Origin: Lentimicrobiaceae bacterium
GTDB lineage: Bacteria > Bacteroidota > Bacteroidia > Bacteroidales > UBA4417
Assembly (NCBI GenBank): GCA_028697555.1
Contig: JAQVEX010000003.1
Location: forward strand, 12,450 to 76,449
DNA: 64,000 nucleotides
Direction: 5' to 3'
Shown here: one piece after another, positions 392 to 49,780 of the stretch
How the letters are laid out: the number at the start of each line of letters is the position of its first letter
Numbering within the stretch: the stretch's first letter is position 1
Notes under the pieces: generated by a model
What the model was told of the DNA's origin: nothing
The model's database searches: none
The model's input: only the letters and a program-made list of their open reading frames with translations
Made by a program: the position numbers and the translations under genes

Positions 392-967
392 TTATTTTTC
401 TATTAATTCTTTAAGTTTATCCCAATGCGAAGACACGTTTTTTTCCGAATAAGTCCGCAATAGCTCCAAAGTATCGGCATTGCACGTGGACTCACCTGTT
501 TCGGTGTCCGGATGAACCACATACATAGGCACTGCAAGATAAATAATATCGTATATTTCTTTCGAAAAATTTATTTCGGTGCTTGAGTAATGTATGAACT
601 TCTCTTCAACTGTATCTTCAGTAGGGATATCAGTATATTTAACTATTAATTTTTCTTCAATATTTACCGGATAAATGAAATCTTCGGCGCAACGATTACA
701 CATAACTTCAATCCATCCTTTTCCGCAAATATCAACATCTATTATCGAGTGTCTTTTTTGTAAAACGATAGTAATATCGATGTCGGTTTTTTTTGAGTAA
801 TCGGGATTGAAAATTTGCATAAATTCTTGCGTTACAGAATAATTGAACTCATTTCTGTCGTCGCTCAAGTTTGCCAACGAAATATTAAATTCATCCAATT
901 TATCTGTAGGTTTCATTCCAATAACTATTAAAGTTTGCAAATGTACATTATTTTTAAAATTTTGCAA
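392..967 (-). CDS. YceD/DUF177 family protein (23S rRNA accumulation protein-like)
   Basis: Acidic 191-aa ORF with a central CxxC (MCNRCAEDF) typical of DUF177. Conserved position immediately upstream of rpmF. The start could instead be the internal Met (MKPTDK...). Confidence 0.7.
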   Translation of the reverse strand: MQNFKNNVHLQTLIVIGMKPTDKLDEFNISLANLSDDRNEFNYSVTQEFMQIFNPDYSKKTDIDITIVLQKRHSIIDVDICGKGWIEVMCNRCAEDFIYPVNIEEKLIVKYTDIPTEDTVEEKFIHYSSTEINFSKEIYDIIYLAVPMYVVHPDTETGESTCNADTLELLRTYSEKNVSSHWDKLKELIEK

Positions 968-1016
968 ACATAATAAGTTATTTAATTATAAAATAATGAA
1001 TCACTAATGCAGACAA

Positions 1017-1640
1017 TCAGGCAAATAGCCCGTGCATGTGAGTTTCTATTTTTTGAATTACCTTAGCCAAATCCTGCGGATTATCTTCAAAGTTAAGATT
1101 ATCAACGTCTAAAATAATCAGATTGCTGTACTTGTAGTTGTCTATCCATGCTTCGTATCTTTCGCCCAAACTTTTCAGGTAATCTAATCTTATACCTGCC
1201 TCATATTCCCTGCCGCGCCTTTGTATGTTTCTGACAAGAGTACCTATTTCGGCACGCAAATATATAAGTAGTTCGGGCGGCTTTATAAACGATTCCATCA
1301 GCTCGAACAGTGAAGAATAGTTTTCAAAATCACGTGATTCCATCAATCCCATTGAATGTAGGTTGGGTGCAAAGATGTACGCATCTTCGTATATGGTACG
1401 GTCTTGAATAACATCAAATTCGCTGTTTCTGATATTTATTACCTGACGAAAACGACTATTTAAGTAGTAAACTTGCAAATTGAAAGACCAACGTTGCATA
1501 TCTTCATAAAAACTATGCAGATACGGGTTTGTATCAACATCCTCGTACAAAGGATGCCAATTTAATTGTTTTGATAACAAACGTGTTAGGGTTGTTTTTC
1601 CTGCACCGATATTTCCGGCTATTGCTATATGTTTTCCCAT
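1017..1640 (-). CDS. deoxynucleoside kinase
   Basis: N-terminal P-loop GNIGAGKTT, DRTIYED and RRGREYE motifs, and about 200 aa length match the dCK/dGK/dNK family. Confidence 0.85.
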   Translation of the reverse strand: MGKHIAIAGNIGAGKTTLTRLLSKQLNWHPLYEDVDTNPYLHSFYEDMQRWSFNLQVYYLNSRFRQVINIRNSEFDVIQDRTIYEDAYIFAPNLHSMGLMESRDFENYSSLFELMESFIKPPELLIYLRAEIGTLVRNIQRRGREYEAGIRLDYLKSLGERYEAWIDNYKYSNLIILDVDNLNFEDNPQDLAKVIQKIETHMHGLFA

Positions 1641-1683
1641 TATATTTTTTATTGTGATTATTTATATTTTGCTAACAAAGATA

Positions 1684-3198
1684 TTATTTTTCAGCTAACA
1701 TTTGTAATATTTCGTCAACATAATTTCTTTCATTGTTCAAACGGGGCACCTTATTCTGACCACCTAATCTTTCACGATTTCTCATCCATTCGTAAAAAGT
1801 TCCTCTGGGTACTGCATGTACTTTTGGCGGTTTTAGCATAATATCTTTATGCCTTTTGGCTTCGTAGTCGGAGTTTAAACTTTTAAGAGCCACATCAAGC
1901 TCGTGAGTAAAAGCGTCCACAGAATCGGGCACTTGCACAAACTCAATAATCCACTCGTGCATTGCAGTATTGTTATCTTCGTTGATATAAGGTGCAACGG
2001 TATAGTTTGTAAAATCGGAATTTGTGTTTCTGCAAGCAACTTCTAAAGCCTTGTTGGCATTGTCTTCAATAACTTCTTCTCCGAAAGTGTTGACAAAACT
2101 TGTGGTTCGTCCGGTAACCCTAATTCTGTACGGGTCTAAAGATGTAAATTCAATTGTATCGCCAATCATATACCGCCATAGTCCTGCATTGGTTGAAATA
2201 ACAACTGCATAATTTTTGCCCATTTCTACTTCCCAAATGGGATGACTTTTAGGATTATCGGATTGCAAGTTGCTTAACGGTATAAATTCGTAAAAGATGC
2301 CGTAATCAAGCATTAGCAACATATCGGTAGCTACTAACCTATCTTGTATTCCGAAAAATCCTTCGCTGGCATTGTATGTTTGCAGGTAATACAACGGTTT
2401 ACTCAATATTTTGTCGTAGTGATTTCTGTACGAAGAAAAATTAACACCACCATGAATAAAAAGCTCCAAGTCATTCCAAACTTCGTTGATGTACTTCTTT
2501 CCCGTCATTTCCAAAATTCTGTTAAGCATCACTAACATCCACGATGGGACACCCATAAGAGCAGTAACATTTTCCTTAATGGTTGCGTTTGACATCTGAT
2601 CTAGTTTTTCTTCCCAATCTTCAATCAAAGCTATATCAATACTTGGAGTGCGTGCCAATTGAGCCCAAAACGGAAGATTGTCCATAAGTATAGCCGACAC
2701 ATCACCGCAAGCAATTTGTCCACCAACTCCGTCTTGCTTAAGACTCCCTCCCATAGCCAATGTTTTTCCTTCTAATATTATTGAGTCGGGGTTGTTGTGC
2801 AAATAAATAGCTATTAGGTCTTTGCCGCCTTTGTAATGACAATCGTTGAGAGCTTCGTTAGTTACCGGAATAAATTTACTTTTGCTATTTGTTGTTCCTG
2901 AGCTTTTGGCAAACCATTTTACATCTGTATTCCACAAGATATTATTTTCGCCTGCTCGTAGCCTTTCAATGTATGGTTGCAAATCTTCGTACTTGCTAAT
3001 GGGAACGCGATTTACGTAATCGTAAAAATTGTTTATTGAATCGTAGTCGTATTTTTTGCCCCATTCGGTACTGCTACCGCTTTGCAAAAGCTTTTGTAAC
3101 CATTCCCTTTGTACTTCGTCGGGATACTTCAAAAAGTATTCTATTTGATGCATGCGCCGACGCATAAACCACGATACTATTGAGTTGAATATTGCCAT
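1684..3198 (-). CDS. GH3 auxin-responsive promoter family protein (acyl-adenylate-forming enzyme-like)
   Basis: 504 aa with FAKSSGTT and YNASEGFFG motifs, characteristic of the GH3 family that is widespread in Bacteroidota. Confidence 0.8.
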   Translation of the reverse strand: MAIFNSIVSWFMRRRMHQIEYFLKYPDEVQREWLQKLLQSGSSTEWGKKYDYDSINNFYDYVNRVPISKYEDLQPYIERLRAGENNILWNTDVKWFAKSSGTTNSKSKFIPVTNEALNDCHYKGGKDLIAIYLHNNPDSIILEGKTLAMGGSLKQDGVGGQIACGDVSAILMDNLPFWAQLARTPSIDIALIEDWEEKLDQMSNATIKENVTALMGVPSWMLVMLNRILEMTGKKYINEVWNDLELFIHGGVNFSSYRNHYDKILSKPLYYLQTYNASEGFFGIQDRLVATDMLLMLDYGIFYEFIPLSNLQSDNPKSHPIWEVEMGKNYAVVISTNAGLWRYMIGDTIEFTSLDPYRIRVTGRTTSFVNTFGEEVIEDNANKALEVACRNTNSDFTNYTVAPYINEDNNTAMHEWIIEFVQVPDSVDAFTHELDVALKSLNSDYEAKRHKDIMLKPPKVHAVPRGTFYEWMRNRERLGGQNKVPRLNNERNYVDEILQMLAEK

Positions 3199-3268
3199 CT
3201 CTGTTTTTAATTCTTATTTCCTAAAAATATTAAAAGTGGTAAAGGTAGTATTAAATCGCCAATAAAGG

Positions 3269-4294
3269 TCAAATTTTATATTTTTTAATTACATCAATTG
3301 TTCTATCAATCATATTATCATCGATACCTAAATGTGTTACCATTCTGATATTATTGTAACCCATGTGCATGGTCAGTATGCCGTCGTTCTTTAATTGACT
3401 GACATAATTATCGGCGTCTACTTTTGGGTCTAATTTAAAAAGAACAATATTGGTTTCAACTTTTGCTACGCTTTGCACATAGTTGAGTTTTTCTAATTCG
3501 GTGCTTAAAAGTTTAGCTCTTCTATGGTCGTCTTTCAGACGTAAAATATTATTGTCGAGTGCATAAATACAGGCTGCAGCCAAATAGCCTGACTGCCTCA
3601 TTCCTCCACCAAACATCTTTCGGTAGCGTCTTGCAGTATTTATAAATTTGCTATCTCCCATTAGCACCGAACCCACAGGAGCTCCCAATCCTTTCGACAT
3701 GCACACCGAAATACTGTCGAACAAATTTCCATAGTCTTCGGTTGTTTGCTCGGTTTCAACCAAAGCGTTGAACAGTCTGGCTCCGTCTAAGTGATATTTT
3801 AAATTATGCTTTTTGCATATTTTACCTATTTCCACCAATTTATTAAAATCGTAGATACTGCCACCGCCTTTATTCATGGTATTTTCGACAGACACTAAAG
3901 CTGTTGGCGGACGATGAACATCGTCGGATGGATTTATGTGATTTTCTACATCATCGGGGTCGAGATGACCTCTATCGCCGGATAACAAGCAAGTTGACAA
4001 GCCAGAATGAAAAGCCGGTCCTCCAGACTCATAGTAATATATATGCGACAACTTATGGCAAATAATCTCTTGTCCGGGTTGCGTATGAGTTTTTATAGCA
4101 ACCTGATTAGCCATAGTTCCCGAAGGAAAATACAGAGCACTTTCCTTATTAAACATTTTAGCGATTTTTTCTTCCAATCGCTTGGTTGTCGGGTCGCCTC
4201 CATATACATCGTCGCCAACCTGTGCCTGCATCATGTATTGGAGCATTTCGGGTGTTGGTTTTGTAACTGTATCGCTGAGTAAATCTACTATCAT
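3269..4294 (-). CDS. ltaE: low-specificity L-threonine aldolase (PLP-dependent)
   Basis: 341 aa. Motifs DLLSDTVTKPT, GDDVYGGDPT, FPSGTMANQ and the PLP-lysine region CMSKGLGAPVGS match the beta-eliminating lyase/threonine aldolase family. Confidence 0.85.
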   Translation of the reverse strand: MIVDLLSDTVTKPTPEMLQYMMQAQVGDDVYGGDPTTKRLEEKIAKMFNKESALYFPSGTMANQVAIKTHTQPGQEIICHKLSHIYYYESGGPAFHSGLSTCLLSGDRGHLDPDDVENHINPSDDVHRPPTALVSVENTMNKGGGSIYDFNKLVEIGKICKKHNLKYHLDGARLFNALVETEQTTEDYGNLFDSISVCMSKGLGAPVGSVLMGDSKFINTARRYRKMFGGGMRQSGYLAAACIYALDNNILRLKDDHRRAKLLSTELEKLNYVQSVAKVETNIVLFKLDPKVDADNYVSQLKNDGILTMHMGYNNIRMVTHLGIDDNMIDRTIDVIKKYKI

Positions 4295-4299
4295 ATATA

Positions 4300-5490
4300 T
4301 TATTTTTTAAAATCTTTATCGTATGCTTTTTTAAGACTATTAAGAGCTTTTTTCAGATGCGATTTCGGACAACCAATATTCAAACGCATAAAGCCTTCGC
4401 CTCCACTGCCGAACATAATTCCAGTATTGAGTCCCATATCGGCTTTTTTCAAAAAGAAATGATTTAATCTTTTGTCGCTTAAATTAAGCTCTCGACAGTC
4501 TAACCACATTAAAAAAGTAGATTCGGGGATTACAGGTTTTATTTTTGGCGTATATTCCGACATAAATTCTACAACATAATCGACGTTTTTTTGCAGGTAA
4601 CTCATCAAATCATCAACATATTGGTAGCCATTCTTGTACGCCTCTTTAAGAGCTACATTGCCAAAAATATTTCCGTTGGAAATATGATATTTTTGAATTT
4701 GATTTTCAAATTTACTTCTTAGCTCAGGATTAGGAATAACATAAACCGAAGAAGCCAATCCCGACACATTAAAAGTTTTGCTCGGTGCGGTAAACATAAC
4801 TGTTTGTTGCGCAACCTCTTCCGATAAAGTGAGAATAGGTGTATACTTATATTTTTTGTAAACCAAATCGCAGTGAATATCGTCCGACACAATGATTACA
4901 TTGTATTTGAGAGCTATATCAGTCATTTTGGTCAGTTCTTCAACAGTCCATACGTTCCCTCCAGGGTTGTGCGGATTTGACAGAATAAAAAGTTTAACAC
5001 CTTGTTTAATCTGCTCTTCAAAGTCATCGAAATCTATTTGAAGTCTGCTGCCGTCAAAATTGAGTTTACTTTGCACCAAGACTCTGTTATGGTCGGTTAC
5101 TGCGTTAAAAAACGGGAAATAAACCGGCGGCTGAACCAAAATTTTGTCTCCTTCGTTTGTATAAGCAAGTACAGCAATATTAACAGCCGGAACGACTCCA
5201 GGCGTGAATCCGACAGTGGTTGAGCAAATTTCTAACTGATGCCTATTTTTAAACCACGAAATAAAAGAATCGAAATGATTGGGATTTCTGTAATCGTAAC
5301 CAAAAACCGAGTGTTTAACTCTGTCTTTCAATGCTTTGGTTATAAAATTAGGGGTTTTAAAATCCATATCGGCGACCCACATAGCGTATTTGGCATCGTG
5401 TCCCAAAACTTGCTTCATAGCATCGTATTTCAAGCTACCGCTACCACGACGATTAATTACTTTATCGAAATTATTTTTTACATTTTTCAT
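4300..5490 (-). CDS. MalY/PatB family C-S lyase (class I/II aminotransferase fold)
   Basis: 396 aa. RRGSGSLKYD near the N-terminus, SNPHNPGG, and the PLP-lysine motif PSKTFNVSGL. Confidence 0.8.
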   Translation of the reverse strand: MKNVKNNFDKVINRRGSGSLKYDAMKQVLGHDAKYAMWVADMDFKTPNFITKALKDRVKHSVFGYDYRNPNHFDSFISWFKNRHQLEICSTTVGFTPGVVPAVNIAVLAYTNEGDKILVQPPVYFPFFNAVTDHNRVLVQSKLNFDGSRLQIDFDDFEEQIKQGVKLFILSNPHNPGGNVWTVEELTKMTDIALKYNVIIVSDDIHCDLVYKKYKYTPILTLSEEVAQQTVMFTAPSKTFNVSGLASSVYVIPNPELRSKFENQIQKYHISNGNIFGNVALKEAYKNGYQYVDDLMSYLQKNVDYVVEFMSEYTPKIKPVIPESTFLMWLDCRELNLSDKRLNHFFLKKADMGLNTGIMFGSGGEGFMRLNIGCPKSHLKKALNSLKKAYDKDFKK

Positions 5491-7420: not shown

Positions 7421-7565
7421 TGGGTGCGGGTTAGTTTTGAGTTTTGAGTTTTGAGTTCCGAGTTCTGAGTTCCGAGTTCCGAGTTCCGAGTCTCCAAACT
7501 CAATACTCTCGACTCAAAACTGACAACTCACCGACCACCGACCACCAACCACCAATCACCCAAAA
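7421..7565. repeat. mosaic heptamer-array intergenic element, copy A (type II, long imperfect hairpin)
   Basis: Fills the whole spacer between the convergent yitT-like and obg genes. Order: TGGGTGCGGGTTAG, then 8 tandem TTYYGAG heptamers (7435-7490), an A/C-rich complement (ACTCAATACTCTCGACTCAAAACTGAC), then 5 tandem CACCRAC heptamers (7529-7563). The outermost TGGGTG pairs with CACCCA. Confidence 0.9.
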
Positions 7566-8574: not shown

Positions 8575-9744
8575 CTATCTGATTTTTAAAATTGCCTTGC
8601 CTACCTTAGCCGAAATACGATTAAAAATTTCCGCTTTTTCTCCCGTTGCATCAACAAGAACATGCTTACCTCTTTTTTTGTACAAATCCATAACAGGAGC
8701 CGTTTTGGTTTGGTACTCTTCGAGACGACCAATTATAAGTCCTGTAGATTTGTCGTAAGGACGTCCTTTTTCGGAACGACCTCTCTTGTCTAATCGCTTA
8801 ATGAGCTCGATTGTAGGTGCTGTCATTTCGATAACAAACGAAACATTCATGTTCATCTTTCGCAACAACCCGTCTAAAATGTAAGACTGCAATATTGTAC
8901 GCGGAAATCCTTTAAAAACAAATCCGTTGACATCGCTATGAAGTTTTATCTCACGTTCTATAATTCTTATAACTATCTCATCAGGAACAAGCTCACCTTG
9001 TTCTAATTTTGGTTTAATTACTTCACTCAATTTGGTGTTCATTTCAACCTCTTTGCGTAGCAATGAACCTGTAGAAATATAGTATAAGTTATATTTCTGA
9101 GCAATAAGCCTACCCTGCGTTCCTTTACCAACACCCGGAGGTCCCGAAAGCACCAAATTGAACCATACTTTTTGAAGTGCTTCATCAATAGCTTTTTGAA
9201 GCTTTTTAAAAATATCGGGTATATGCCCAACTCCATTTATTGCCTGATATAAATTTCTTTCCTTGTAATATTCTTTAACAGGAGCTGTTTTTTGATGATA
9301 CTCTTGAAGTCGGAACTGAATTACCTCTTCGTTATCGTCGCTCCTTCCGGACACTTTTCCTCTTTCAATAAGACGGCGGGTAAGCTCTTCGTCGGGAACT
9401 TCCAGACTTAACATACAAGTTAGAGTTGTGTTAAGTTTTAACAACAATCCGTCGAGTATGTACGCTTGTACTAAAGTTCTTGGAAAGCCATCGAAAAGAA
9501 ATCCGTTTTTGTCGGGATTGGTTATTATTCGTTTTTCAATAAGTTCAACCATAATATCGTCGGAAACGAGATTTCCTTTGGCTATCAGGTCATCAACCTG
9601 CTTTCCCAACTCAGTTCCTTCTTTAATTTCTTGACGTAACAAGTCGCCGGTTGAAATATATGCAAGGTTATACTTCTCAATAAGCAACTTTGACTGTGTT
9701 CCTTTTCCTGCTCCCGGAGGTCCGAATATAGCTATATTTAACAT
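8575..9744 (-). CDS. adk: tandem-fused double adenylate kinase (two complete short-LID Adk domains in one 389-aa ORF)
   Basis: Two P-loops (FGPPGAGKGTQ at the N-terminus; SGPPGVGKGTQ near residue 200). Each is followed by YISTG, GFPRT and a short LID region. There is no stop codon between the halves. Confidence 0.85.
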   Translation of the reverse strand: MLNIAIFGPPGAGKGTQSKLLIEKYNLAYISTGDLLRQEIKEGTELGKQVDDLIAKGNLVSDDIMVELIEKRIITNPDKNGFLFDGFPRTLVQAYILDGLLLKLNTTLTCMLSLEVPDEELTRRLIERGKVSGRSDDNEEVIQFRLQEYHQKTAPVKEYYKERNLYQAINGVGHIPDIFKKLQKAIDEALQKVWFNLVLSGPPGVGKGTQGRLIAQKYNLYYISTGSLLRKEVEMNTKLSEVIKPKLEQGELVPDEIVIRIIEREIKLHSDVNGFVFKGFPRTILQSYILDGLLRKMNMNVSFVIEMTAPTIELIKRLDKRGRSEKGRPYDKSTGLIIGRLEEYQTKTAPVMDLYKKRGKHVLVDATGEKAEIFNRISAKVGKAILKIR

Positions 9745-9769: not shown

Positions 9770-10312
9770 TTACTTGTTTTCTTTTTTATAAATATGTGGG
9801 TAATTTCTGCCGTAGCCGTCTAAATCTAACCCATAGCCAACAATAAAATCGTTGGGTATCTCAAAGCCCACATAATCGACAGGGAAACGATTGTTAAATG
9901 AATCGGGCTTTAGTAAAAGTGTTGCTATTCTGACACTTTTAGGATTATGTTCATGCAATCTTGAAATAAAAAATTCAAGCGTTAAGCCTGTGTCAACAAT
10001 GTCTTCTACAATAATAACATCTTTGCCGTTTATATCAATATCTAGACCAAAAACTTCCCTAACTTTTCCCGAACTTTCTAATTTATCATATGAAGACAGT
10101 TTTACAAATGCCAATTGACAATGACCCGAAAATCTTTTTACCAAATCGGATGCAAACATAAAAGAACCGTTAAGTATTACTATAAAAATCGGATCCTTGT
10201 CTTTGTACTCGGAATTTATTGTATAGCTTATCTGATTAATTTTTTCAACTATATCAGTTTCTTCTATATACTTCTTAAAGTCAATCCCGTCAATACTTAT
10301 TTGATTAGGCAT
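9770..10312 (-). CDS. hpt: hypoxanthine phosphoribosyltransferase
   Basis: 180 aa. PRPP-binding motif VIIVEDIVDTGLT and C-terminal DFIVGYGLD typical of Hpt. Confidence 0.9.
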   Translation of the reverse strand: MPNQISIDGIDFKKYIEETDIVEKINQISYTINSEYKDKDPIFIVILNGSFMFASDLVKRFSGHCQLAFVKLSSYDKLESSGKVREVFGLDIDINGKDVIIVEDIVDTGLTLEFFISRLHEHNPKSVRIATLLLKPDSFNNRFPVDYVGFEIPNDFIVGYGLDLDGYGRNYPHIYKKENK

Positions 10313-10486
10313 AAAATTCTATCATTTAATTGCAAAAATGCAAAGTTAGAATTTTATTTAAATTTATTCCTGTCATTTCTAAATAAGTATGACAAATTTC
10401 ATGTTTTTTGCTGATTACTTACTTGTTTTCAAGCATTTTCATCTTTATCATTTACTTTTTTGTTGTGTTTAAAGGATAAAGCTTTT

Positions 10487-10642
10487 GCGTGTTGCGGGGT
10501 ACGAGTTGCGGGTTAGTTTTGTCCCGAAATTTCGGGACAAAACTGACAACTCACCGACCACCAACCACCAACGACCGATCACTCATCACTAATCACCAAA
10601 AGCTAACGGCTAACGGCTAACGGCTAACAGCCAAAAGCTAAT
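10487..10642. repeat. mosaic heptamer-array intergenic element, copy B (type II)
   Basis: Order: GCGTGTTGCGGGGTACGAGTTGCGGGTTAG, a perfect 30-nt palindrome AGTTTTGTCCCGAAATTTCGGGACAAAACT (10515-10544), a CACCGAC/CACCAAC/CATCACT array, then a GCTAACG x3-4 array. Lies in the divergent hpt/purE spacer. Confidence 0.9.
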
Positions 10643-10665
10643 AATTCAAAATAACTTTCAATAAC

Positions 10666-10696
10666 TTTGATAAAACACGCAAATATTATACTTTTG
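10666..10696 (+). promoter_or_regulatory. putative Bacteroidota-type sigma-A promoter for purE (TTTG-N19-TACTTTTG)
   Basis: TTTG at 10666-10669 and TACTTTTG at 10689-10696, matching the published Bacteroides -33 TTTG / -7 TAnnTTTG consensus with 19-nt spacing. The box lies 16 nt upstream of the ATG at 10712. Confidence 0.45.
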
Positions 10697-10711
10697 AAAA
10701 AAATTAAAAAG

Positions 10712-11215
10712 ATGAAAGCAATTGTAAGTATAATTATGGGTAGCACCAGCGACCTAAAAGTAATGGAACAAGCAGCAAAGCTATTTGATGAATTTGAAAT
10801 TCCTTTTGAAATAAATGCTTTATCGGCTCACCGCACACCACAAGAAGTTGAAAAGTTTGCAAGCACAGCAGAAGAAAGGGGTATAAAAGTAATAATAGCT
10901 GCTGCAGGAATGGCGGCTCACTTGCCCGGAGTTATTGCTGCATATACTACGCTGCCTGTTATTGGTGTGCCTATAAATGCCTCTCTCTACGGTATTGACG
11001 CTTTGTTGGCTATTGTCCAAATGCCTCCAGGAATACCTGTTGCAACCGTAGGTATTAACGCTGCTACAAATGCAGGACTATTAGCTATACAAATTTTAGC
11101 TTTGAGTGACGAAAAAATTAACGAAAAGCTAAAACTGTACAAAAGCAATTTGAAACAAAAAATTGTGAATGCTAATAATGAATTATCAAAGTTAGATTAT
11201 AAATATAAAGTGTAG
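10712..11215 (+). CDS. purE: 5-(carboxyamino)imidazole ribonucleotide mutase PurE
   Basis: MKAIVSIIMGSTSDL... and AAGMAAHLPGV motifs. I prefer the internal ATG at 10712 over the track start 10667, because PurE proteins begin right before the GSxSD motif and the putative promoter lies inside the 5' extension. Confidence 0.9.
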   Translation: MKAIVSIIMGSTSDLKVMEQAAKLFDEFEIPFEINALSAHRTPQEVEKFASTAEERGIKVIIAAAGMAAHLPGVIAAYTTLPVIGVPINASLYGIDALLAIVQMPPGIPVATVGINAATNAGLLAIQILALSDEKINEKLKLYKSNLKQKIVNANNELSKLDYKYKV

Positions 11216-13120: not shown

Positions 13121-13708
13121 TTATTCTTCCACAAGGTTAAACGCTTTCGGATAGGTATCGTCGGTAAAAATCCAAAACAAAGGTTTGTTGCCTCTAAAAG
13201 TGCCATCTTCGTTGTATATTTCAACAACAGGACAAATACCTTTAACTTTTTTATCTATCTGCAATGTTTTTTTGTCGAAATACCACTCCTCCAAAAATCT
13301 AATTTTAGTTATGTCCTGAACCGAAATTTCCTTAATCAAAACGGTGTCAACCAACTCGTATGGCGGTTGAGCCGACATTACGCTAATAGTATCAACACGG
13401 CGAATTATGGTTTTTACGTCTTCGGCAGATAACTGTCTGTACGAAAAAATGTCGTGAGCAACAACATTCCCGTCGGTAACTTGCTTGAAAATATGTTTAA
13501 CAAATTCCTCTCTTTTTATTCCTTCTATATTGTTTATCCACCAATAGGAGTCGGCACTTACATCACATATAGGAACATCGTACTGAATACGCTTTGTTAG
13601 CTCATCGCCCACCTTATTCTTATCCGATTTGCAAGAAACAATCAGCGTTAAGCATAATGCAAACAGCGAAAATACAACAAGACCTACTTTAATATTAATT
13701 CTATTCAT
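13121..13708 (-). CDS. GldN-like lipoprotein (short paralog of GldN/PorN)
   Basis: 195 aa. Signal peptide plus lipobox (LIVSC). PPYELVDTVLIKE...EEWYFDKKTLQIDKKVKGICPVVEIYNEDGTFRGNKPLFWIF aligns with GldN at 19343-20194 (PPYDYYDTVLVEK...EDWYFDKQRSMLEVRIIGLCPVVDRFNEDGSYRGPSPMFWINF). It lacks the C-terminal ~75 aa of GldN. Confidence 0.7.
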   Translation of the reverse strand: MNRINIKVGLVVFSLFALCLTLIVSCKSDKNKVGDELTKRIQYDVPICDVSADSYWWINNIEGIKREEFVKHIFKQVTDGNVVAHDIFSYRQLSAEDVKTIIRRVDTISVMSAQPPYELVDTVLIKEISVQDITKIRFLEEWYFDKKTLQIDKKVKGICPVVEIYNEDGTFRGNKPLFWIFTDDTYPKAFNLVEE

Positions 13709-13820
13709 ATGTCTTTATTTATGATATTTCTGATTTAATATTTTGTAAAAATAATAATTGTGCAAAACTACTCTAAAAATGCTTGTCAATATTTTTCAAC
13801 TTTTCGATAAAACCTTGAAG

Positions 13821-13917
13821 TGGTGGCAGATGCAATGAGAAATGAGCAATGTACAGTTAACCCCGAAGTTTCGGGGCTAATTACTAATTGTTAATTATTG
13901 ATTCCCACGTACCCCAT
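13821..13917. repeat. mosaic heptamer-array intergenic element, copy C (type I, short)
   Basis: Order: TGGTGG, CAATGAG-like units, hairpin CCCCGAAGTTTCGGGG (13861-13876), CTAATTACTAATTGTTAATTATTG, then CCCACGTACCCC. Colinear with the cores of copies E and F. Lies in the divergent spacer upstream of porP. Confidence 0.85.
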
Positions 13918-19342: not shown

Positions 19343-20194
19343 ATGAAACAAATAATCATAATATTGGCAGCTGTACTATGCATAACTATAAGTAGTTATT
19401 CGCAGGCTATATTAAATACTCCTCCATTAGATGGAGTAATAGATAAAACGGAACGTTTCGAAAAAGAACCTGTGCCTTATGCTTATGTTCGCACATCTGA
19501 CTATGTATGGGAACGCCGTATATGGAGAACCATTGACTTCAAAGAAAAAATGAATCAAGTAATGTACTATCCCGAAGTGCCACACAACAATTGGCGTAAC
19601 TTTATAACCGTCATTATGGACGCTCTTCGTGAAGGAACACTTACCGCATACGATGCTACATCTGCAACAGACGAGTTTACAACTCCTTTAAGCTACAAAG
19701 AACTTATGGAGAGAACCGACCGTACGCAAACTGTACAGCTTCAAAGAAACTATCCTCCATACGACTACTACGATACGGTTTTGGTTGAAAAATTCAATCC
19801 TTCGCATGTTAAATCACTACGTATTAAAGAAGATTGGTATTTCGACAAACAACGTTCCATGCTTGAAGTCAGAATTATAGGTCTTTGTCCGGTAGTCGAC
19901 CGCTTTAATGAAGACGGCTCATATAGAGGTCCTTCGCCAATGTTTTGGATAAACTTTGCCGAAGCCAGACCAGTTCTTGCCAAAGCCGAAGTGTTTAACA
20001 GATTTAACGGTGCCGCTCGTATGTCGTACGATGAGTTTTTCTGGAAAAGAATGTTTTCAAGCTACATTACTAAAGTTGATAACCAGTACGACAGAAGTAT
20101 TGCCGAATACGCTACAGGTATGGATGCTGTGCTTGAATCGCAAAGAATTAAAGATGAATTGCTCAACTTTGAGCAAAACTTGTGGGAATACTAA
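19343..20194 (+). CDS. gldN: gliding motility/T9SS protein GldN (PorN)
   Basis: 283 aa. Signal peptide, conserved EDWYFDKQRS...GLCPV...FW block, last gene of the gldKLMN operon. Confidence 0.9.
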   Translation: MKQIIIILAAVLCITISSYSQAILNTPPLDGVIDKTERFEKEPVPYAYVRTSDYVWERRIWRTIDFKEKMNQVMYYPEVPHNNWRNFITVIMDALREGTLTAYDATSATDEFTTPLSYKELMERTDRTQTVQLQRNYPPYDYYDTVLVEKFNPSHVKSLRIKEDWYFDKQRSMLEVRIIGLCPVVDRFNEDGSYRGPSPMFWINFAEARPVLAKAEVFNRFNGAARMSYDEFFWKRMFSSYITKVDNQYDRSIAEYATGMDAVLESQRIKDELLNFEQNLWEY

Positions 20195-25031: not shown

Positions 25032-26087
25032 TTAGAAATTTAGTCTGGCAGCAATATTGTGAACTCCACCAAATGGATTAGTTGCTCTATACGAATAATC
25101 TACCGCAAATACGGAAGATTTGTCAGAATTTAAAGGAGCTTGAACAGTAATACCTGCACTAGGTCCTGTAAATACTGTCGTTCTTTTTGCATTATCTAAA
25201 ATGCCATCTTCGTAGGTATATGCTCCACGTACTTGCAAGTAGTCGCTTAAGCTATACTCTAGACCTAAAACAAATTGGTCTTTACCGAAGGCATTTGAAA
25301 CAAATGCTCCTGCAAATGTAATTTGGTGAATTTCAGCAAAGTCCAAAGCATAAGAACCTCCAATAAATAGCTGTGTTGGCAATTCAAACGCCGATGAACG
25401 TATGTCCATGGTAAATTGGTTAGAGTTGCCCGGTAAGAATGTTTGAATTGACAAACCGTCTCCCGTATATCTCATGGTAGGTCCAATGTTTTTAAGAGCA
25501 ATACCGAACTTGATGTTTTCTTTAATACCGGTTACGTACTGAATACCGGCATCAATAGCTACACCGCTTGCGCTAAGGTTACTCATTGACTCGTTAATAA
25601 TTTTAAAGTTGAAACCTCCGTATATTGAGTTAGAGAACGCTTTTGCATATGCAAGGTTAATAACCAAATATCTGGGCGAAAAGTTTCCAACTCCTCCTTC
25701 GGGAAGGTCAACTCTAGTAATAGGTATATCTCCAAAATTCATTGTCATAATAGAGGCACCCAAAACGCTTCCAGGTCCAACGCGTTGTGCTATACCAATA
25801 TTATATATACCTATTTCAGCTCCTTTCAACCATTGTGTATGGTTGAAAGAAACTTCAGTACCCGGAGTAAAAGCCAAACCTGCAACGTTTGAAAACAAAC
25901 TTTCCAAACCAAAGGCACAAGCCACGTTGGCTCCATTCCAGCCCGAACTTTTTGCCCACGGGTTTATCAATAACTGGGAAGCTCCAGCTTCTCCAGACCT
26001 GTCTTTATTTCCAGCCTGCATATAACCCGGTAACAACAAGGCTGCAACGACTGTAATTATAACTATTTTATTTAAAATCTTTTTCAT
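25032..26087 (-). CDS. PorV/PorQ family outer-membrane beta-barrel protein (T9SS-associated, FadL-like)
   Basis: 351 aa. Signal peptide, N-terminal EAGASQLLINPWAKSSGWNGANVA block resembling the PorV/PorQ signature, alternating beta-strand pattern, C-terminal ...ARLNF. Family assignment is from recall, not a search. Confidence 0.55.
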   Translation of the reverse strand: MKKILNKIVIITVVAALLLPGYMQAGNKDRSGEAGASQLLINPWAKSSGWNGANVACAFGLESLFSNVAGLAFTPGTEVSFNHTQWLKGAEIGIYNIGIAQRVGPGSVLGASIMTMNFGDIPITRVDLPEGGVGNFSPRYLVINLAYAKAFSNSIYGGFNFKIINESMSNLSASGVAIDAGIQYVTGIKENIKFGIALKNIGPTMRYTGDGLSIQTFLPGNSNQFTMDIRSSAFELPTQLFIGGSYALDFAEIHQITFAGAFVSNAFGKDQFVLGLEYSLSDYLQVRGAYTYEDGILDNAKRTTVFTGPSAGITVQAPLNSDKSSVFAVDYSYRATNPFGGVHNIAARLNF

Positions 26088-26113: not shown

Positions 26114-29100
26114 TTAAAATGCATTTAAGTCAATTTGACGTGGCGAACCGAAGAATTTAACAACTTTTTCGCCTTGTGGTGATTTAACATATATAATGTA
26201 AATACCTCCTGCAACAGGAATACCGGCATAGTTTGTCAAATCCCAATCGACTGAACTGATAGTTGGGTCGTCTTTAGAAAACTTACGTATTAAGTTACCA
26301 CCTGTATTGTATATCGAAATATCGCAAGTTGGAGGTAGGTTAACAATTTTTACGCGTTTATCTAATTGGTCGGTTTCGTATTGGTTATAACCGTAATACG
26401 GATTAGGTACAACTGCTATTTTATCCAAGTCATTTTCGGCTTTTGCTACATCGTTATATTCTGTTGCAACATTCTCGGTTGTAAACTTATACATGGGCCA
26501 ATAATCGTTATCAGCATGCGCTCCAGCCATTGGAACTGAGAAGTAGCGTTCGTACGGTTTTTGTACTCTTATCTGGATTTTTAAGTCGCAGTTTAGCCAC
26601 TCTCCGGTTTGAGGAGTACTGTAAGGTACAGCTACCCACATAGCATTTGAAAGCTGTTGTGCTCTGAATTGACGAGCAAGTACAGGTATAGCAGGTCTTG
26701 TAATTTGTTTAACAAAGTGTGCACAACCATCATAAGCCGGATGGTCGAATACACTTGCAGGATGTATTGGAGATGTTATACCTAATTTTGCTTTTTTGCC
26801 TGTATATGTGGACATGACGTAAATATAGTGTCTTCCACCTATTGGGAAATCAACCGGAGCATATTCGTAGTCTAATCTCAACGGAGCCGGATTAAAGAGC
26901 AAGTCAGCTCCATTTTCTTCCGGATAACGAGAGTCTTCTCCGAAAACAATGTTCAAACGTTCACCTGTTTCAACATTGATAGCGTATCCCGGGAACCAGC
27001 TCATACCATATGGGTGGATAAAGTCGGAGTTAAGTGCTGGATCAGAACTTACAACAGCTGTATCACCATTTTGATTTAATGAGCGATGTGCACGAAGTTC
27101 AAATTGCTCAACTTTTCCTTGCGATTGATTTTTGGCTCTCGACAACTCAACAACGGCACAACGTGTCCATTTTGATTTATCAGGAGTAAATACTATATCA
27201 ACACTTGACAACTGAGTATTTATGAATTGATTACGCATTGCATCACTTTGAACACTGTATGAAGGAGCTATATATCCATCACTTTGTGCAAAAATCATAG
27301 GTGACCACCTGCCTTCCAAAACTTGCTCGTAAATTCCTTGAGGATCGAAAAAGTTGCCTATAGCTTTCCAGTCCCAATTCTTAATCATACCTGCTCTAAT
27401 CCAGTCGAAAAGCTCATGACCGTCAATATCCGGAACAAAATCAATATATGGTTTTGTCGGGTCTTCAAATTCCATAGTTGCACCAAGGAATCCGTTGTTT
27501 TCCAATTGAGGTTCTCTGGTATAAACATAATCATAACCTGTTAAGTTACCTGCGGTATCATAGTCCGGTCTTATCTCAACATTTGTAACGTACAAGCCAA
27601 AGTATAGACTTTGTTGAATGTTGATAGAAAGACCTAAGTCTAAGAATAATTGTTCGTTTTTAACAACTGTACTTGTATCCGAATGGTACACTTTTCCAGT
27701 TGATAAGTCGGTCAATGTCCATGTGCCAACAGGCATTAACGTATCTTTATTTTGGAATTTATATACAACGTCATGCATAGGATCGAACTTAACAACATAT
27801 TCAGCATTTTTAACATTAAGCGGGTCGATAACTTTAACATCTATAGGTCCTCTACCTTCTTTATACTTTAAATTGTAAGCAATTGGATATGTGTCCATAC
27901 CTAAGGTGTTATTGGTTGAATCCATCATTGGTTTCGACAAAATTTCTTCAATCGAAGATTCGTCTAATTCAAGATAATTTCCACCATTTCCTTGACCTGC
28001 AATACGAGTAATAACTACACCATCACCATATTCTGCTTTAGGCGAAAGCAATCCCACAGTTTGATGAGGAATACCTGTATAAACTCTGATGTTTTTTCTA
28101 CCAGCCAAATAAGGTAGCATCTGACCATCCAACATGTCAGGATCTAGTGGATTATAGGGTTTGTAGTTATTATATGCATAAGCTAATGCCAAATAGTAGT
28201 ATTGTTTGTGATTAACAAGAGCTTCGTTAGTAAACGCGTCTTTTGTAATCTTAACTGAGTGAACAATACCTTTATTTTCGCCTCTAACTTCTTGGTAAGC
28301 TTCATTACTGTTAAGGTCGGCATTGTAATAATAGTTTATGATAGAAGAAACGTCGTTTTTAAGGTCGCATTGGAATACCGGACGAGCTTTATCAACGTCT
28401 TTAATATCGGCAACTGTAACAGTAGCATCTCTAAGTTGGAAAATTTGATAACCTTCGAAACGATATAGCGAGTCCCAAGAAACTGATGGGTCAGGTGCCT
28501 GGATACGAGGATCGTATTCTACGTATTTTTCATTAAAGTTATTTCCATCGTCAGGAGTTCTGCGGTTAGAAATGTAAATAATGATAGCTTTGTCTAATTC
28601 TCTTAAAGTTAAGTCGGGAGCATTTGGTCCGGTGATAACTTTAAAACAGTTGTCGAACAATTGCTGACATTTATCGTCAACAACTTGCAGTTTTCTTACC
28701 GAAGCCATTGGTCCTCCACTTGTTGCTCTTGCCCAAGGAATACCAACGGTAATGTAGTTAACTGCACCTGGTCTTAGAGTAAATGGTCCTGCCGACTGCA
28801 TGAAACGACGGTCGCCTGGAGGGTTACCGCTACTTTCTTCAGTCCAATCTTTAGGTCCGTTGGGTTGCAAACCACCTGTTCCCCAGTCGCAAATATCGGT
28901 ATTTCCAGGGAACATAAAGTCGCAAACAGGTCCGTATGTACCACCCTGACCCGGATAAGCTGTTCCACCATACTCCATTCTTTTACCATCTTTCCAGCGT
29001 CCTGTCAAGTAGTTATAGTAGTCTTTTGCATAATGAGGGTCACCTTGGTTTCCTGACTCGTTGTTGTGATAAACAAATCTTCTCATACCAAAACGTTCGT

Positions 29101-30394
29101 CATCAATAATTCCGTTTCCAAAGTTAACACCGTTAATTGCACATGCATTAACTAAGGTTAAAACAGAGTCGCCGGGCGACTGGTTAAGAGCAACCATTTG
29201 GAGTGTAGAGTCGTACTCAACTATAGCACAACTTCCAAAAAAGGTTGGACCTTCGTCGTAGCTGTACGGATTGAATGAAGGGTTGTCGTAACCGTCGGGG
29301 TCAAGATAAGGACCTTGGAAGAAGTCAACACCGACTGCCGGTGGATTTTCTCCGTATGTCCATACTTGATTATTACCGTCAACAGGACGACCGTTGTAGC
29401 AATATCCCAAACCTCTGATAACATCGCAACCAACATAGTCGTCGTAAGCGAAACCTAACTCAGAGTCAACCCATTGCGAGAAGTAGGTATTATTTAAGGT
29501 ATATGTAGAACGGTTAATAATTTCGTATGAGTAGAAAGTCATATCGTTAATTTCGTCGTTGGTGCTGAAAGCAAAAGCCTGAGCTCTGATTTCCAAGCCT
29601 ATAGGCTGTCCACCGGTTTCTGAGTGAACGTCGCCTTTATCATTGAACACCCACCACAAAGTTCCGTCACCTTTCAACACTTGGTCAACCAAAATACCAT
29701 TACCCTCCATTGTAGGAATATTGGTGTGGCACAACTCGTTTGTCAAGTCGTAGTACGGATAATCTCCATCTTCCCATTTGTATTCTCCGTCTCCGTTTAC
29801 GTCTTTAAAAGGAGCTAAATATCTGGGTTGGTGTAGATTTTCTTTTCCGTGTGCCGGATAGTCTCTAATTGATTCAGGCACTTGATAAGTTGGGTATGCT
29901 GACGGATTTTGGTTATAAGCCAAAAATTCATCTACTTCAGCACGAGATATCGAGAATATTTTATCGTACTCTTCGCAAACTTCTCTGGTAATAGAAGCAG
30001 GGTTATCGCCACTAACCGTGAGCGGTCCGGGGAAGTAGTCGATACCAACTTGGCGGAAACGTTGTGCAGCAAGTTTTAGCTGTCCTTGGTTGTCAAGACC
30101 TCCAATCCACAATGCTGCAGCAAACATACTGGTTTTTTTCGAACCCTTTGGAATTTCGTATTGTCCAATTTCGAAGTCCCACCACATGTCGCCGCTGGTG
30201 TTGATACGTGTTCTTACGTTGTTAATTTCGAGCCACTTAAAGTTAGCACCCGCCTTACATCCTGCGGCTGTGGCTTTTATTTGAGCAGGCGAACTTTTTT
30301 CGTATCTGTATCTTTCGGCTTGTACTTCAGACGAAAACAAGAATAAAAACCCGACTGCTAATAAGCTTAAAAGTATTTTTTTCATTTGTATCAT
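26114..30394 (-). CDS. very large secreted protein of unknown function with a T9SS-type C-terminal sorting domain
   Basis: 1426 aa. Signal peptide (LFLFSSEVQA). I recognise no catalytic domain. The last ~95 aa (VVPNPYYGYN...VKIVNLPPTCDISIYNTGGNLIRKF...VDWDLTNYAGIPVAGGIYIIYVKSPQGEKVVKFF) fit the type A CTD pattern (PNP ... IYxxxGxxV ... GxYxxxV ... K). The start could be the Met 3 codons downstream. Confidence 0.6.
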   Translation of the reverse strand: MIQMKKILLSLLAVGFLFLFSSEVQAERYRYEKSSPAQIKATAAGCKAGANFKWLEINNVRTRINTSGDMWWDFEIGQYEIPKGSKKTSMFAAALWIGGLDNQGQLKLAAQRFRQVGIDYFPGPLTVSGDNPASITREVCEEYDKIFSISRAEVDEFLAYNQNPSAYPTYQVPESIRDYPAHGKENLHQPRYLAPFKDVNGDGEYKWEDGDYPYYDLTNELCHTNIPTMEGNGILVDQVLKGDGTLWWVFNDKGDVHSETGGQPIGLEIRAQAFAFSTNDEINDMTFYSYEIINRSTYTLNNTYFSQWVDSELGFAYDDYVGCDVIRGLGYCYNGRPVDGNNQVWTYGENPPAVGVDFFQGPYLDPDGYDNPSFNPYSYDEGPTFFGSCAIVEYDSTLQMVALNQSPGDSVLTLVNACAINGVNFGNGIIDDERFGMRRFVYHNNESGNQGDPHYAKDYYNYLTGRWKDGKRMEYGGTAYPGQGGTYGPVCDFMFPGNTDICDWGTGGLQPNGPKDWTEESSGNPPGDRRFMQSAGPFTLRPGAVNYITVGIPWARATSGGPMASVRKLQVVDDKCQQLFDNCFKVITGPNAPDLTLRELDKAIIIYISNRRTPDDGNNFNEKYVEYDPRIQAPDPSVSWDSLYRFEGYQIFQLRDATVTVADIKDVDKARPVFQCDLKNDVSSIINYYYNADLNSNEAYQEVRGENKGIVHSVKITKDAFTNEALVNHKQYYYLALAYAYNNYKPYNPLDPDMLDGQMLPYLAGRKNIRVYTGIPHQTVGLLSPKAEYGDGVVITRIAGQGNGGNYLELDESSIEEILSKPMMDSTNNTLGMDTYPIAYNLKYKEGRGPIDVKVIDPLNVKNAEYVVKFDPMHDVVYKFQNKDTLMPVGTWTLTDLSTGKVYHSDTSTVVKNEQLFLDLGLSINIQQSLYFGLYVTNVEIRPDYDTAGNLTGYDYVYTREPQLENNGFLGATMEFEDPTKPYIDFVPDIDGHELFDWIRAGMIKNWDWKAIGNFFDPQGIYEQVLEGRWSPMIFAQSDGYIAPSYSVQSDAMRNQFINTQLSSVDIVFTPDKSKWTRCAVVELSRAKNQSQGKVEQFELRAHRSLNQNGDTAVVSSDPALNSDFIHPYGMSWFPGYAINVETGERLNIVFGEDSRYPEENGADLLFNPAPLRLDYEYAPVDFPIGGRHYIYVMSTYTGKKAKLGITSPIHPASVFDHPAYDGCAHFVKQITRPAIPVLARQFRAQQLSNAMWVAVPYSTPQTGEWLNCDLKIQIRVQKPYERYFSVPMAGAHADNDYWPMYKFTTENVATEYNDVAKAENDLDKIAVVPNPYYGYNQYETDQLDKRVKIVNLPPTCDISIYNTGGNLIRKFSKDDPTISSVDWDLTNYAGIPVAGGIYIIYVKSPQGEKVVKFFGSPRQIDLNAF

Positions 30395-35149: not shown

Positions 35150-35572
35150 ATGAAACGTACATATAAAAATATTTTTTTTACTTTGTTATGCTCCTTTTTC
35201 ATGTTTTTATCGTGTGGCGATAAAAACTATCCTGATATACCCTACGTTAATGTCGACAGGTACTTGTATATTAACTCAATGGATTATATTCCCGTAGGTG
35301 GATACAAGTACATAGACGATGGCTACAGAGGTTTGATTGTTTACAGAATTATGACCAACGAGTTTTCGGTATTTGAAAGGTGCTGCCCACACGATCCCGA
35401 AAAGATAACAGCAAAAGTATTTGTTGAAGAATCGGGCGTTATATGTATTGACACAACTTGTGGAAGTCGTTTTAATTTGGTTGACGGAGGCAAAATTGAA
35501 GGTCCATCGATTTACCCTTTAAAAATGTATCGCCATAGCTTTGATGGGGAGGTCTTACATATATATAATTAG
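35150..35572 (+). CDS. Rieske-fold-like small lipoprotein (incomplete cluster ligands)
   Basis: Start taken at the ATG at 35150 (MKRTYKN...), not the GTG at 35075. Lipobox FLSCGD. CPH box (ERCCPHD) followed by CGSR instead of CxxH, with a GP...L..Y tail typical of Rieske-like domains. Confidence 0.5.
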   Translation: MKRTYKNIFFTLLCSFFMFLSCGDKNYPDIPYVNVDRYLYINSMDYIPVGGYKYIDDGYRGLIVYRIMTNEFSVFERCCPHDPEKITAKVFVEESGVICIDTTCGSRFNLVDGGKIEGPSIYPLKMYRHSFDGEVLHIYN

Positions 35573-35775
35573 TGGTACGGGTTACGGGTTGCGGGGTGCG
35601 GGGTGCGGGTTAGTCCCGAAGTTTCGGAAGAGTTACGAGTTATGAGTCGGGAGTTTTGAGTTAGGAGTTAGGAGTTACGAATATTTTTCCTGACTCAGAA
35701 CTCAAAACTCAGAACTAATTCACTAACCACTCATCACCCATCACCCATCACCCATCACCAACCACCGACCACCAC
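35573..35775. repeat. mosaic heptamer-array intergenic element, copy D (type II, long imperfect hairpin)
   Basis: Order: GGTTACG/GGTTGCG/GGGTGCG heptamers, GGGTTAG, hairpin TCCCGAAGTTTCGGA, GAGTTAYG-type units, a loop, complementary CTCAGAACTCAAAACTCAGAAC, then CATCACC x3 and ACCACCGACCACC. Begins right after the stop of the upstream gene. Confidence 0.9.
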
Positions 35776-35790
35776 TTGCACATTTACACA

Positions 35791-45247: not shown

Positions 45248-45258
45248 TTAATTAGCTA

Positions 45259-45600
45259 TTGGTGAATGGTGGTGGGTGAATGGTGGTGGGTGAATGGTGG
45301 TGAGTGATGGGTGGTGAGTGATGGGTGGTGAGTGATGGGTGGTGAGTGATGGGTGGTGAGTGATGGGTGGTGAGTGATGGGTGGTGAGTGGTGGCTTATA
45401 TCAATTATCAATTATCAATTATCAATTATCAATTATCAATGAACAATGAACCCCGAAACTTCGGGACTAATTACTAATTGTTAATTGCTAATTAAAAATT
45501 ACCACGTAACACGCAACACGTAACCCGCAACACGCAACACGCAACACGCAACCCGCAACCCGAACCCGCCAACAGCTAACAGCTAAAGGCTAAAAGCTGC
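45259..45600. repeat. mosaic heptamer-array intergenic element, copy E (type I, largest, ~340 bp)
   Basis: 3 x GGTGAATGGTGGTG plus 6 x AGTGATGGGTGGTG (nine contiguous 14-mers, 45261-45386). 5 x ATCAATT plus ATCAATG plus AACAATG (45400-45448). Hairpin CCCGAAACTTCGGG (45452-45465). CTAATTA/CTAATTG/TTAATTG units. ACACGCA/ACCCGCA heptamers (45502-45570). AACAGCT/AAAGGCT units (45571-45598). Confidence 0.95.
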
Positions 45601-49607: not shown

Positions 49608-49780
49608 CTTGGCTGTTAGCTGTTAGCTCTTAGCCTTTAGCTGTTGGCAATGAGCAATGAGCAATGAGCAATGAGCAATGAACACCGAAACTTCGGGGTT
49701 AATTATTAATTGATAATTGTTAATTGAAAATTGCCACGCACCTCGAAACCCGCAACCCGCAACCCGTACCAACCACCACC
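49608..49780. repeat. mosaic heptamer-array intergenic element, copy F (type I)
   Basis: Order: GCTGTTA/GCTCTTA units, 5 x GCAATGA (49647-49681), hairpin CCGAAACTTCGG (49685-49696), TTAATTA/TTAATTG/ATAATTG units, CCACGCACC, CCGCAAC x2-3, then ACCAACCACCACC. Fills the whole spacer between the convergent hypothetical gene and udk. Confidence 0.95.

Follow-up and report, generated by a model that had tools for sequence, protein, structure and literature searches.

A perfect 30-nt palindrome between hpt and purE in a Lentimicrobiaceae genome is probably the apex of a hypervariable heptamer-array element

How heptamer repeats arise in bacteria, and what they do, has lacked an explanation since about 1990. 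The cyanobacterial STRR sequences were reportedly described by Mazel et al. in 1990, and in the strict sense comprise the units CCCCAGT, TTGGTCA and CAACAGT of heterocystous cyanobacteria; the small dispersed repeats (SDR) of Nostoc, attributed to Elhai et al. in 2008, are said to measure 21-27 nt and to be too short to encode anything. Heptamer repeats in Xanthomonas and Nostoc (GGGAATC, GGGGAYT) vary strongly in length and sequence between close relatives, and no detailed literature on heptameric repeats existed at the time of that study, by its own statement (PMC4692102). TAACTGA repeats are found in Beggiatoaceae, Cyanobacteria and a few Bacteroidetes, and other heptamer repeats lie in intergenic regions of Gramella and Aequorivita; in both instances close relatives are without the repeats (PMC4679880). 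Heptameric long simple sequence repeats are further attributed to Mrazek (2007), as that work is cited in PMC4679880 and PMC4692102. Here we describe heptamer-array elements in a 64,000-nt stretch of a Lentimicrobiaceae metagenome-assembled genome (MAG), referred to in its entirety as the window, and in particular the element that occupies the spacer between the divergent genes hpt and purE and carries a perfect 30-nt palindrome. The element is likely to be a hypervariable heptamer array, similar to STRR and REP sequences, whose presence at the hpt-purE site is most probably neutral.

The features of this spacer are as follows, in positions of the window:

9770-10312, minus strand: hpt, encoding hypoxanthine phosphoribosyltransferase (NCBIfam equivalog TIGR01203, 171.7 bits, cut-off 150)
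10341-10348, minus strand: candidate hpt -7 box, TAACTTTG, based on motif match and conservation only, inside the conserved hpt-proximal block
10474-10642, no strand: element B, the whole variable insert of 169 nt, defined by Tandem Repeats Finder (TRF), with edges from the alignment with six relatives
10515-10544, no strand: composite palindrome, AGTTTTG + TCCCGAA-AT-TTCGGGA + CAAAACT, characterized by sequence, shuffles and folding
10522-10537, no strand: 16-nt hairpin module, TCCCGAAATTTCGGGA, whose core CCGAA-NN-TTCGG is common to four other elements of the window
10666-10696, plus strand: purE promoter-like motif, TTTG-N19-TACTTTTG, invariant in 9 of 9 aligned sequences
10712-11215, plus strand: purE, encoding N5-CAIR mutase (NCBIfam equivalog TIGR01162, 208 bits, cut-off 149.6)

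The palindrome, AGTTTTGTCCCGAAATTTCGGGACAAAACT, is perfect, with two arms of 15 nt and no spacer, as the first-pass annotation of this DNA had reported. No other perfect palindrome in the window is as long (the runner-up has an arm of 8), and the longest arm to arise in 100 block shuffles was 12, as compared with the 15 observed. As single-stranded DNA, it has a folding energy of -15.2 kcal/mol (z = -7.5). Its make-up is composite: the innermost heptamer unit, AGTTTTG, is followed by the 16-nt hairpin module and then by the complementary unit CAAAACT. The flanking arrays that had been noticed earlier were recovered by TRF, which places a TTGCGGG-type (GTTGCGG-type) array at 10485-10514, a CAACCAC-type array at 10547-10576, an ATCACTA array at 10578-10596 and 3.9 copies of GCTAACG, with 100% matches, at 10602-10628, the GCTAACG-type array as a whole extending over 10601-10642. 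Read as units, 10538-10600 holds CAAAACT, GACAACT, CACCRAC and CACTNAT.

The start codons that bound the spacer are the ATG of purE at 10712 (plus strand) and that of hpt at 10312 (minus strand), and hpt is followed downstream by a tandem-domain adk and by obg. The initial gene calls are upheld for all four genes, hpt and purE by NCBIfam equivalogs and adk and obg by Pfam. Equally, the motif proposed as a purE promoter is present, with TTTG at 10666-10669 and TACTTTTG at 10689-10696 separated by N19; the repeat copy does lie just upstream of this Bacteroidota-type promoter in a divergent spacer, and its left end is about 175 nt from the hpt ATG, as had been estimated.

Element B belongs to a family. 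Among the lags from 3 to 12 that were compared, lag 7 is the sole one at which the window is self-similar, and it marks seven elements; the period returned by TRF is likewise 7 throughout. The seven, identified by TRF and by direct reading of the sequence, are all intergenic and use at least eight unit types. Apart from B, they are:

7421-7562, no strand: element A, with a B-like scaffold and long AGTTnnG / nnAACTC arrays, without the CCGAA hairpin; it fills the convergent gap between a yitT-like gene and obg
13818-13912, no strand: element C', in the divergent gldN-like/porP spacer; hairpin CCCCGAAGTTTCGGGG
35572-35776, no strand: element C, downstream of groEL; hairpin TCCCGAAGTTTCGGAA in the left arm rather than at the apex
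45258-45600, no strand: element D, between NUDIX and M23 peptidase genes; hairpin CCCCGAAACTTCGGGA
49608-49775, no strand: element E, in a convergent gap beside a uridine kinase gene; hairpin CACCGAAACTTCGGGG
59226-59352, no strand: element F, in a convergent gap between APH and M20 peptidase genes, without the CCGAA hairpin

Element C' is the copy that the first-pass annotation had placed in the gldN-like/porP spacer, and its views that the palindrome sits in a copy of a repeat family, and that this family is not restricted to 3' ends, both stand. The elements are built of nested arrays: outer units rich in GGTG or GCGG face outer units rich in CACC or CCGC, and the inner arrays set AGTTnnG opposite nnAACTC, or GCAATGA opposite TTAATTG. 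Because the unit types on the two sides are partly complementary, each element is able to fold as a long imperfect hairpin, and such hairpins were obtained for all elements on both strands (z about -1 to -6). No consistent strand preference in RNA folding, of the kind that might separate selection at the RNA level from selection at the DNA level, was found among the elements. Elements A and B have GCGGGTTAGT in common on their left sides and an exact 25-mer, CAAAACTGACAACTCACCGACCACC, on their right sides; where A has about 14 AGTTnnG / nnAACTC units, the counterpart in B is one AGTTTTG, the 16-nt hairpin and one CAAAACT. It is likely, in our judgement, that the palindrome is simply the apex of one copy in this non-coding intergenic family.

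Considering gaps of at least 60 nt, elements occupy four of four convergent gaps, two of five divergent gaps and one of nine tandem gaps (hypergeometric p ~0.011), where element F, which overlaps a stop codon by 7 nt, was assigned to its gap by hand. Near elements A, B, E and F, neither canonical terminators nor sigma-70 promoters exceeded what chance would give, and the gaps of A, E and F hold no canonical terminator.

The 16-nt hairpin also recurs within the family. CCGAA-NN-TTCGG has six matches in the window, where 0.04 are expected, and five of the six fall in elements B, C', C, D and E, the seven elements together making up about 1.9% of the window. The sixth match, CCGAAGTTTCGG at 48459-48470, falls inside the reading frame of a gene for an M50/PDZ (RseP-like) protease; there are no heptamer units around it, and it is probably due to chance. 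The central dinucleotides of the hairpins in the five elements are AT, GT, GT, AC and AC, AT being that of B, so that the perfect symmetry of B is a single transition away from its siblings. In element C, the hairpin stands directly after GGGTTAG. The genes that flank the other hairpin copies, namely groEL, the NUDIX and M23 peptidase genes, the uridine kinase gene and gldN-like/porP, have no link with purine metabolism, and the hairpins therefore do not mark a purine regulon.

The PurE of the window has an identical counterpart in a Lentimicrobiaceae MAG; exact look-ups of its PurE and GroEL proteins returned no record. Comparison with orthologous loci was made in relatives whose PurE is 93-98% identical. 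Six of these (L003, L007, L009, L010, L012 and L013; PurE 93-95% identical) have hpt-purE synteny, and in all of them about 166 nt beside hpt and about 75 nt beside purE are conserved, the purE block including TTTG-N19-TACTTTTG. The middle of the spacer is instead occupied by a different heptamer element, made of GAAGNCN, AACTCAN, AACCCGC and AACACGT units, to which L012 adds one extra unit. Neither CCCGAAATTTCGGG nor the palindrome is present in the hpt-purE spacer of any of the six. In the closest relative (L001/L002, PurE 98% identical), a phosphoglucomutase gene rather than hpt precedes purE; its element upstream of purE consists of AGCnnTT / GCTAACG arms only, and the palindrome is again missing. 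The first-pass annotation had proposed asking whether the palindrome is kept in such spacers, and the answer is that all six lack it while retaining the promoter blocks. By these alignments, the palindrome is specific to the lineage of the window, while the putative promoters are conserved.

Since element B lies between the conserved hpt-proximal and purE-proximal blocks, upstream of both putative promoters, it is probably untranscribed and part of neither mRNA, nor is it likely to be a gene-specific operator. Its stem resembles an intrinsic terminator in being GC-rich with an AT-rich loop, and the identical palindrome core is accompanied by T-runs in unrelated metagenome contigs; in contrast, B has no T-run on either strand, lies upstream of promoters and is not at a 3' end. 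The intrinsic terminator test returned no terminator-like site on either strand of 10484-10642, and because the stem is followed on both strands by CAAAAC, it is not an intrinsic terminator. Rfam 15 gave no match at gathering score anywhere in the window; when the spacer was scanned by E-value, nothing of relevance emerged, the matches on the palindrome being spurious sub-threshold microRNAs only.

Two further observations concern the ends of the relatives' contigs and the history of B. Ten independent short-read contigs of relatives (L002, L004, L005, L006, L008, L011 and L014-L017) end in the element, about 60-146 nt upstream of purE, which shows that heptamer elements break short-read assemblies. 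In L001, the synteny change falls within the GCTAACG heptamer array (L001 3846-4001 compared with window 10474-10711), and may reflect either a true rearrangement at the repeat or a chimera made in joining short reads. A local inversion was considered as the origin of B, because its left arm matches the reverse-complemented right arm of the relatives over 19 nt (score 33, shuffle maximum 28); the matching block, GCGGGTTAGT, is however a family-wide module, so that a local inversion is not separable from replacement by another copy, and the idea was not retained.

The same variability is seen at the other element loci. Downstream of groEL, L161, L162 and L165 (GroEL 97% identical) have the flanks, canonical terminator and array scaffold of element C, yet they carry 13 GTGATGR units as compared with five in the window and are without the 16-nt hairpin. 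In L163 and L164, an insertion sequence (IS) with an HTH_Tnp_1 open reading frame (ORF) lies inside the GTGATGR array downstream of groEL and truncates the element (L163 ~3290-4014, L164 ~3290-3422). In L167 (GroEL 90% identical), the terminator is present and element C is absent, its place at ~3230-3315 being taken by tandem copies of another repeat, about 20 nt long (CAACTTTGAAATATCT...). Element C' is found in L001/L002 with a 7-nt indel and is absent from L003/L007. The groEL and C' comparisons therefore show the arrays to be hypervariable and the hairpin to be an optional insert. Comparison of filled with empty sites at groEL and hpt-purE reveals no target-site duplication; the flanks stay fixed, and what lies between them has been replaced, not inserted. 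As for element A, its orthologue in the yitT-like/obg gap of L003 (~770-800) and L007 retains the left arm (GTGGGTGCGGGTTAGTTCTG...) and has a different palindrome, CAATTGCCGTGCCTTTAAAGACACGGCAATTG, together with heptamers of a TTCGG core (TTTCGGC ATTTCGG GCTTCGG).

A plausible course of events may be proposed. Whole 7-nt units would be gained and lost by replication slippage, and whole blocks would be exchanged or replaced by recombination or template switching between copies, with elements accumulating wherever extra DNA is tolerated. Any effect of B in the hpt-purE spacer would then be generic and structural, arising for example from spacing or from cruciform-prone DNA. Ordered, dyad-symmetric arrays undergo unit gain or loss and block replacement here between genomes whose PurE and GroEL are 93-98% identical, and because this turnover is visible between close genomes, the lineage can serve as a natural system for the origin of such arrays. 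The elements also matter for MAG quality, since they break short-read assemblies and coincide with synteny change.

As in the known heptanucleotide tandem repeats, the window elements consist of head-to-tail 7-nt units, are mostly intergenic and use several unit types per genome, with strong variation in length and sequence between close relatives, which may lack the arrays; the extra unit in L012, the 7-nt indel in C' and the 13 units as compared with five at groEL are variation of this kind. Some of the known repeats form inverted pairs in Xanthomonas, and polymerase slippage has been proposed for them. The differences lie in the units (GTTGCGG, AGTTnnG, CACCnAC, GCTAACG, GCAATGA, TTAATTG and others), in the host lineage, Lentimicrobiaceae of the Bacteroidales, and in the nesting of unit types in a fixed order with dyad symmetry and a recurrent 16-nt hairpin. 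The elements are not cyanobacterial STRR in the strict sense, as both the units and the organism differ. We found no published description of nested heptamer arrays with a recurrent hairpin.

Small palindromic repeats offer a second comparison. The hairpin is like the SDR of Nostoc in being very small, embedded in repeat contexts and present or absent at orthologous sites, and differs from them in sequence, phylum and size (16 nt as compared with 21-27 nt). It also resembles the REP/BIME/REPIN sequences of Proteobacteria, short palindromes of extragenic DNA that are often located where genes converge and that build composite mosaics (PMC3116915, PMC3733652); the window, with five hairpin copies in its elements, fits the description of a repeated, imperfect extragenic palindrome of 20-40 bp, and REP/BIME/REPIN sequences are IS insertion targets, just as an IS lies inside the array in L163/L164. 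Yet one end of these sequences is marked by a conserved tetranucleotide, GTAG or CGTC (PMC3733652), whereas the hairpins of the window have TTAG, TTAA or TGAA on one side and no such tag. The window furthermore has no RAYT, the copy number per flank is low, and the elements are mosaics of 7-nt tandem arrays. Terminal inverted repeats with a target-site duplication, as in a MITE, were not found, there being no duplication at groEL or hpt-purE.

Beyond the close relatives, 185,579 species genomes were scanned with the pattern GGGTTAGT-N(0-6)-CCCGAANNTTCGG, which yielded 12 matches; nine of the 12 extend to TCCCGAA-NN-TTCGGGA, further than the pattern requires. One match is a Lentimicrobiaceae relative, L144, in which a hairpin with an AT centre lies in the left arm of another heptamer element at another locus, and the others include Flavobacterium, Pedobacter, a Chitinophaga MAG and a Marinimicrobia MAG; in some of these, about 130 nt separate two hairpins. 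Metagenomes scanned for TTGTCCCGAANNTTCGGGACAA yielded 11 matches, none of them orthologous to B or within heptamer arrays. Several have T-runs in the manner of ordinary terminators, so that the sequence of the palindrome, taken by itself, is that of a generic stable hairpin. The hairpin with a TTAG flank had no match in IMG/VR viral contigs, and no paper on the hairpin sequences was found in the searchable literature.

Several points weigh against a neutral array at the hpt-purE site. Neutrality at this locus is a suggestion from sequence comparison, and the positions of the hpt and purE promoters are motif-based and putative. The occupancy of all four convergent gaps without canonical terminators suggests a possible 3'-end role for other copies. 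Hairpins adjacent to GGGTTAG in Flavobacterium, Pedobacter, a Chitinophaga MAG and other phyla hint at a conserved function or a spreading mechanism. Lastly, B comes from one MAG contig only, and the metagenome scan revealed no second B-type palindrome in a heptamer context, so that a lineage-specific co-option is possible.

Of the alternatives, the one that survives best is compatible with the neutral heptamer array, and holds that the 16-nt hairpin is a tiny non-autonomous mobile module, comparable to REP/REPIN sequences or the SDR of cyanobacteria, inserted by a trans-acting enzyme into heptamer arrays, with the palindrome of B as one such insertion. At groEL, the hairpin is present or absent in an otherwise orthologous scaffold, and this single comparison of a filled with an empty site suggests that the hairpin may be mobile. 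In B, C and L144 alike, moreover, it stands right after GGGTTAG(T), and it recurs beside GGGTTAG in several Bacteroidota genera, with the extended stem in most of the scan matches. Conversely, the filled and empty sites at groEL show no target-site duplication, the GTAG/CGTC tag is lacking, and transposase, reverse transcriptase, RAYT-like or other mobile-element genes are absent among the window genes. The 12 matches with the GGGTTAGT flank are also few for so many species genomes, and the terminator-like hairpins in unrelated metagenome contigs would allow an independent origin. We therefore regard an enzymatically inserted module as possible only in a tentative sense. More doubtful still is the fuller proposal that TCCCGAA-NN-TTCGGGA lands beside GGGTTAG-type units, the arrays being its landing pads or its by-products; if so, this would be an undescribed Bacteroidota counterpart of the cyanobacterial STRR and small-dispersed-repeat system, driven by a trans-acting enzyme.

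It is unlikely that the palindrome acts as a cruciform, extruded by negative supercoiling between the divergent promoters so as to absorb torsion or insulate them. That transcription generates supercoiling in twin domains is established, the palindrome does lie between divergently oriented promoter-like motifs, and, being perfect over 30 bp, AT-rich at its centre (GAAATTTC) and stable as a hairpin, it could plausibly adopt a cruciform on physical grounds. Still, at 30 bp it is hardly longer than stable extrusion in vivo requires, the palindrome is not conserved at the hpt-purE site, and the other copies have imperfect stems and occur in convergent gaps.

The first-pass annotation had considered the palindrome a plausible operator for a dimeric regulator, which would here co-regulate hpt and purE, and the setting of a perfect palindrome, in a spacer from which a purine gene diverges on either side, invites this view. 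Palindromic operators are known for purine regulators, such as the PUR box of PurR in E. coli and the PurBox of B. subtilis and L. lactis. The PurBox recognized by Firmicute PurR (AWWWCCGAACWWT) has a CCGAAC core, which the CCGAA of the palindrome resembles, and TGTCCCGAAATTT matches the PurBox at 9 of 13 positions; this likeness was rejected as a coincidence of the 5-nt core CCGAA. An operator should also be retained with its promoters, whereas the palindrome is missing from the six orthologous spacers with conserved promoters and from the 98% relative. It is distant from both promoters, with 121 nt between its 3' edge and the purE -33 box and about 167 nt between its 5' edge and the hpt -7 box. 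Nor does it recur upstream of functionally related genes: the same hairpin is found at groEL, where it is an optional insert, at NUDIX/M23, at the 3' end of udk and at gldN-like/porP. No PurR-like or otherwise matching regulator was seen in the window, where the only other protein with a phosphoribosyltransferase domain is PyrE. The operator is thus highly improbable, and neither an annotation as purine operator nor the inference of a regulon should be based on this palindrome; a tempting false lead is thereby removed.

Just as improbable is an outward promoter borne by the element itself and serving as a second purE promoter. The candidate (TTG at 10492-10494, N19 and TAGTTTTG at 10514-10521) fits the Bacteroidota -33/-7 consensus in motif and spacing and points towards purE, but TAnnTTTG occurs 125 times in the window, the GTTGCGG arrays supply a TTG every 7 nt and so almost guarantee a well-spaced pair, and the motif is absent in relatives. 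Finally, an assembly artefact of a repeat-rich MAG contig is scarcely credible: short-read contigs of the relatives do end inside the element and B is known from one assembly only, yet six independent assemblies agree on hpt-purE synteny and on both flanks, heptamer elements occupy orthologous sites in NCBI, JGI and Logan assemblies, and the palindrome measures just 30 nt with non-complementary flanks, unlike a fold-back chimera.

Heptamer arrays were also sought in viral contigs. A scan for (GAGTTNN)x4 matched at least 120 contigs, some with unit types like those of the window. Because scrambled cores gave at least 120 and 56 matches and period 8 gave 56, the scan shows only that tandem heptamers are widespread, and a phage link of the window family was dropped. 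One IMG/VR contig, L062 (GC 34%), has 14 heptamer arrays in 12.7 kb (482-5157 and beyond), with AATTCAT, AACTCAT and GAGTTTT units, the last facing AACTCAT as a dyad, in short gaps between small co-oriented ORFs. The contigs L065 and L070 contain GAGTTAT, TAGCTTT and AAGCTAA arrays, which are like those of the window.

Some minor observations on the window remain. At 35576-35612, element C has an array of GGGTTAC/GGGTTGC/GGGGTGC with five runs of three to four G spaced 3-4 nt apart, a canonical G-quadruplex motif on the plus strand, whereas element B has only two G-runs of this type. The window adk (8575-9744, minus strand) encodes 389 aa, in which one complete ADK domain follows another, a tandem fusion also present in L009-L013; L003 and L007 have a single-domain adk (192-197 aa; L003 1923-2516, L007 1921-2499), which some 600 nt without a called gene separate from hpt. 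Two minus-strand ORFs without a Pfam match, of 1426 aa (26114-30394) and 351 aa (25032-26087), adjoin a TonB-dependent-receptor-like protein of 1231 aa that contains CarboxypepD_reg domains. The GldN family is represented by two genes, a short paralogue of 195 aa (13121-13708, minus strand) and the operon gldN of 283 aa (19343-20194, plus strand), and the short paralogue is divergent from the porP-gldK-like-gldL-gldM-gldN operon.

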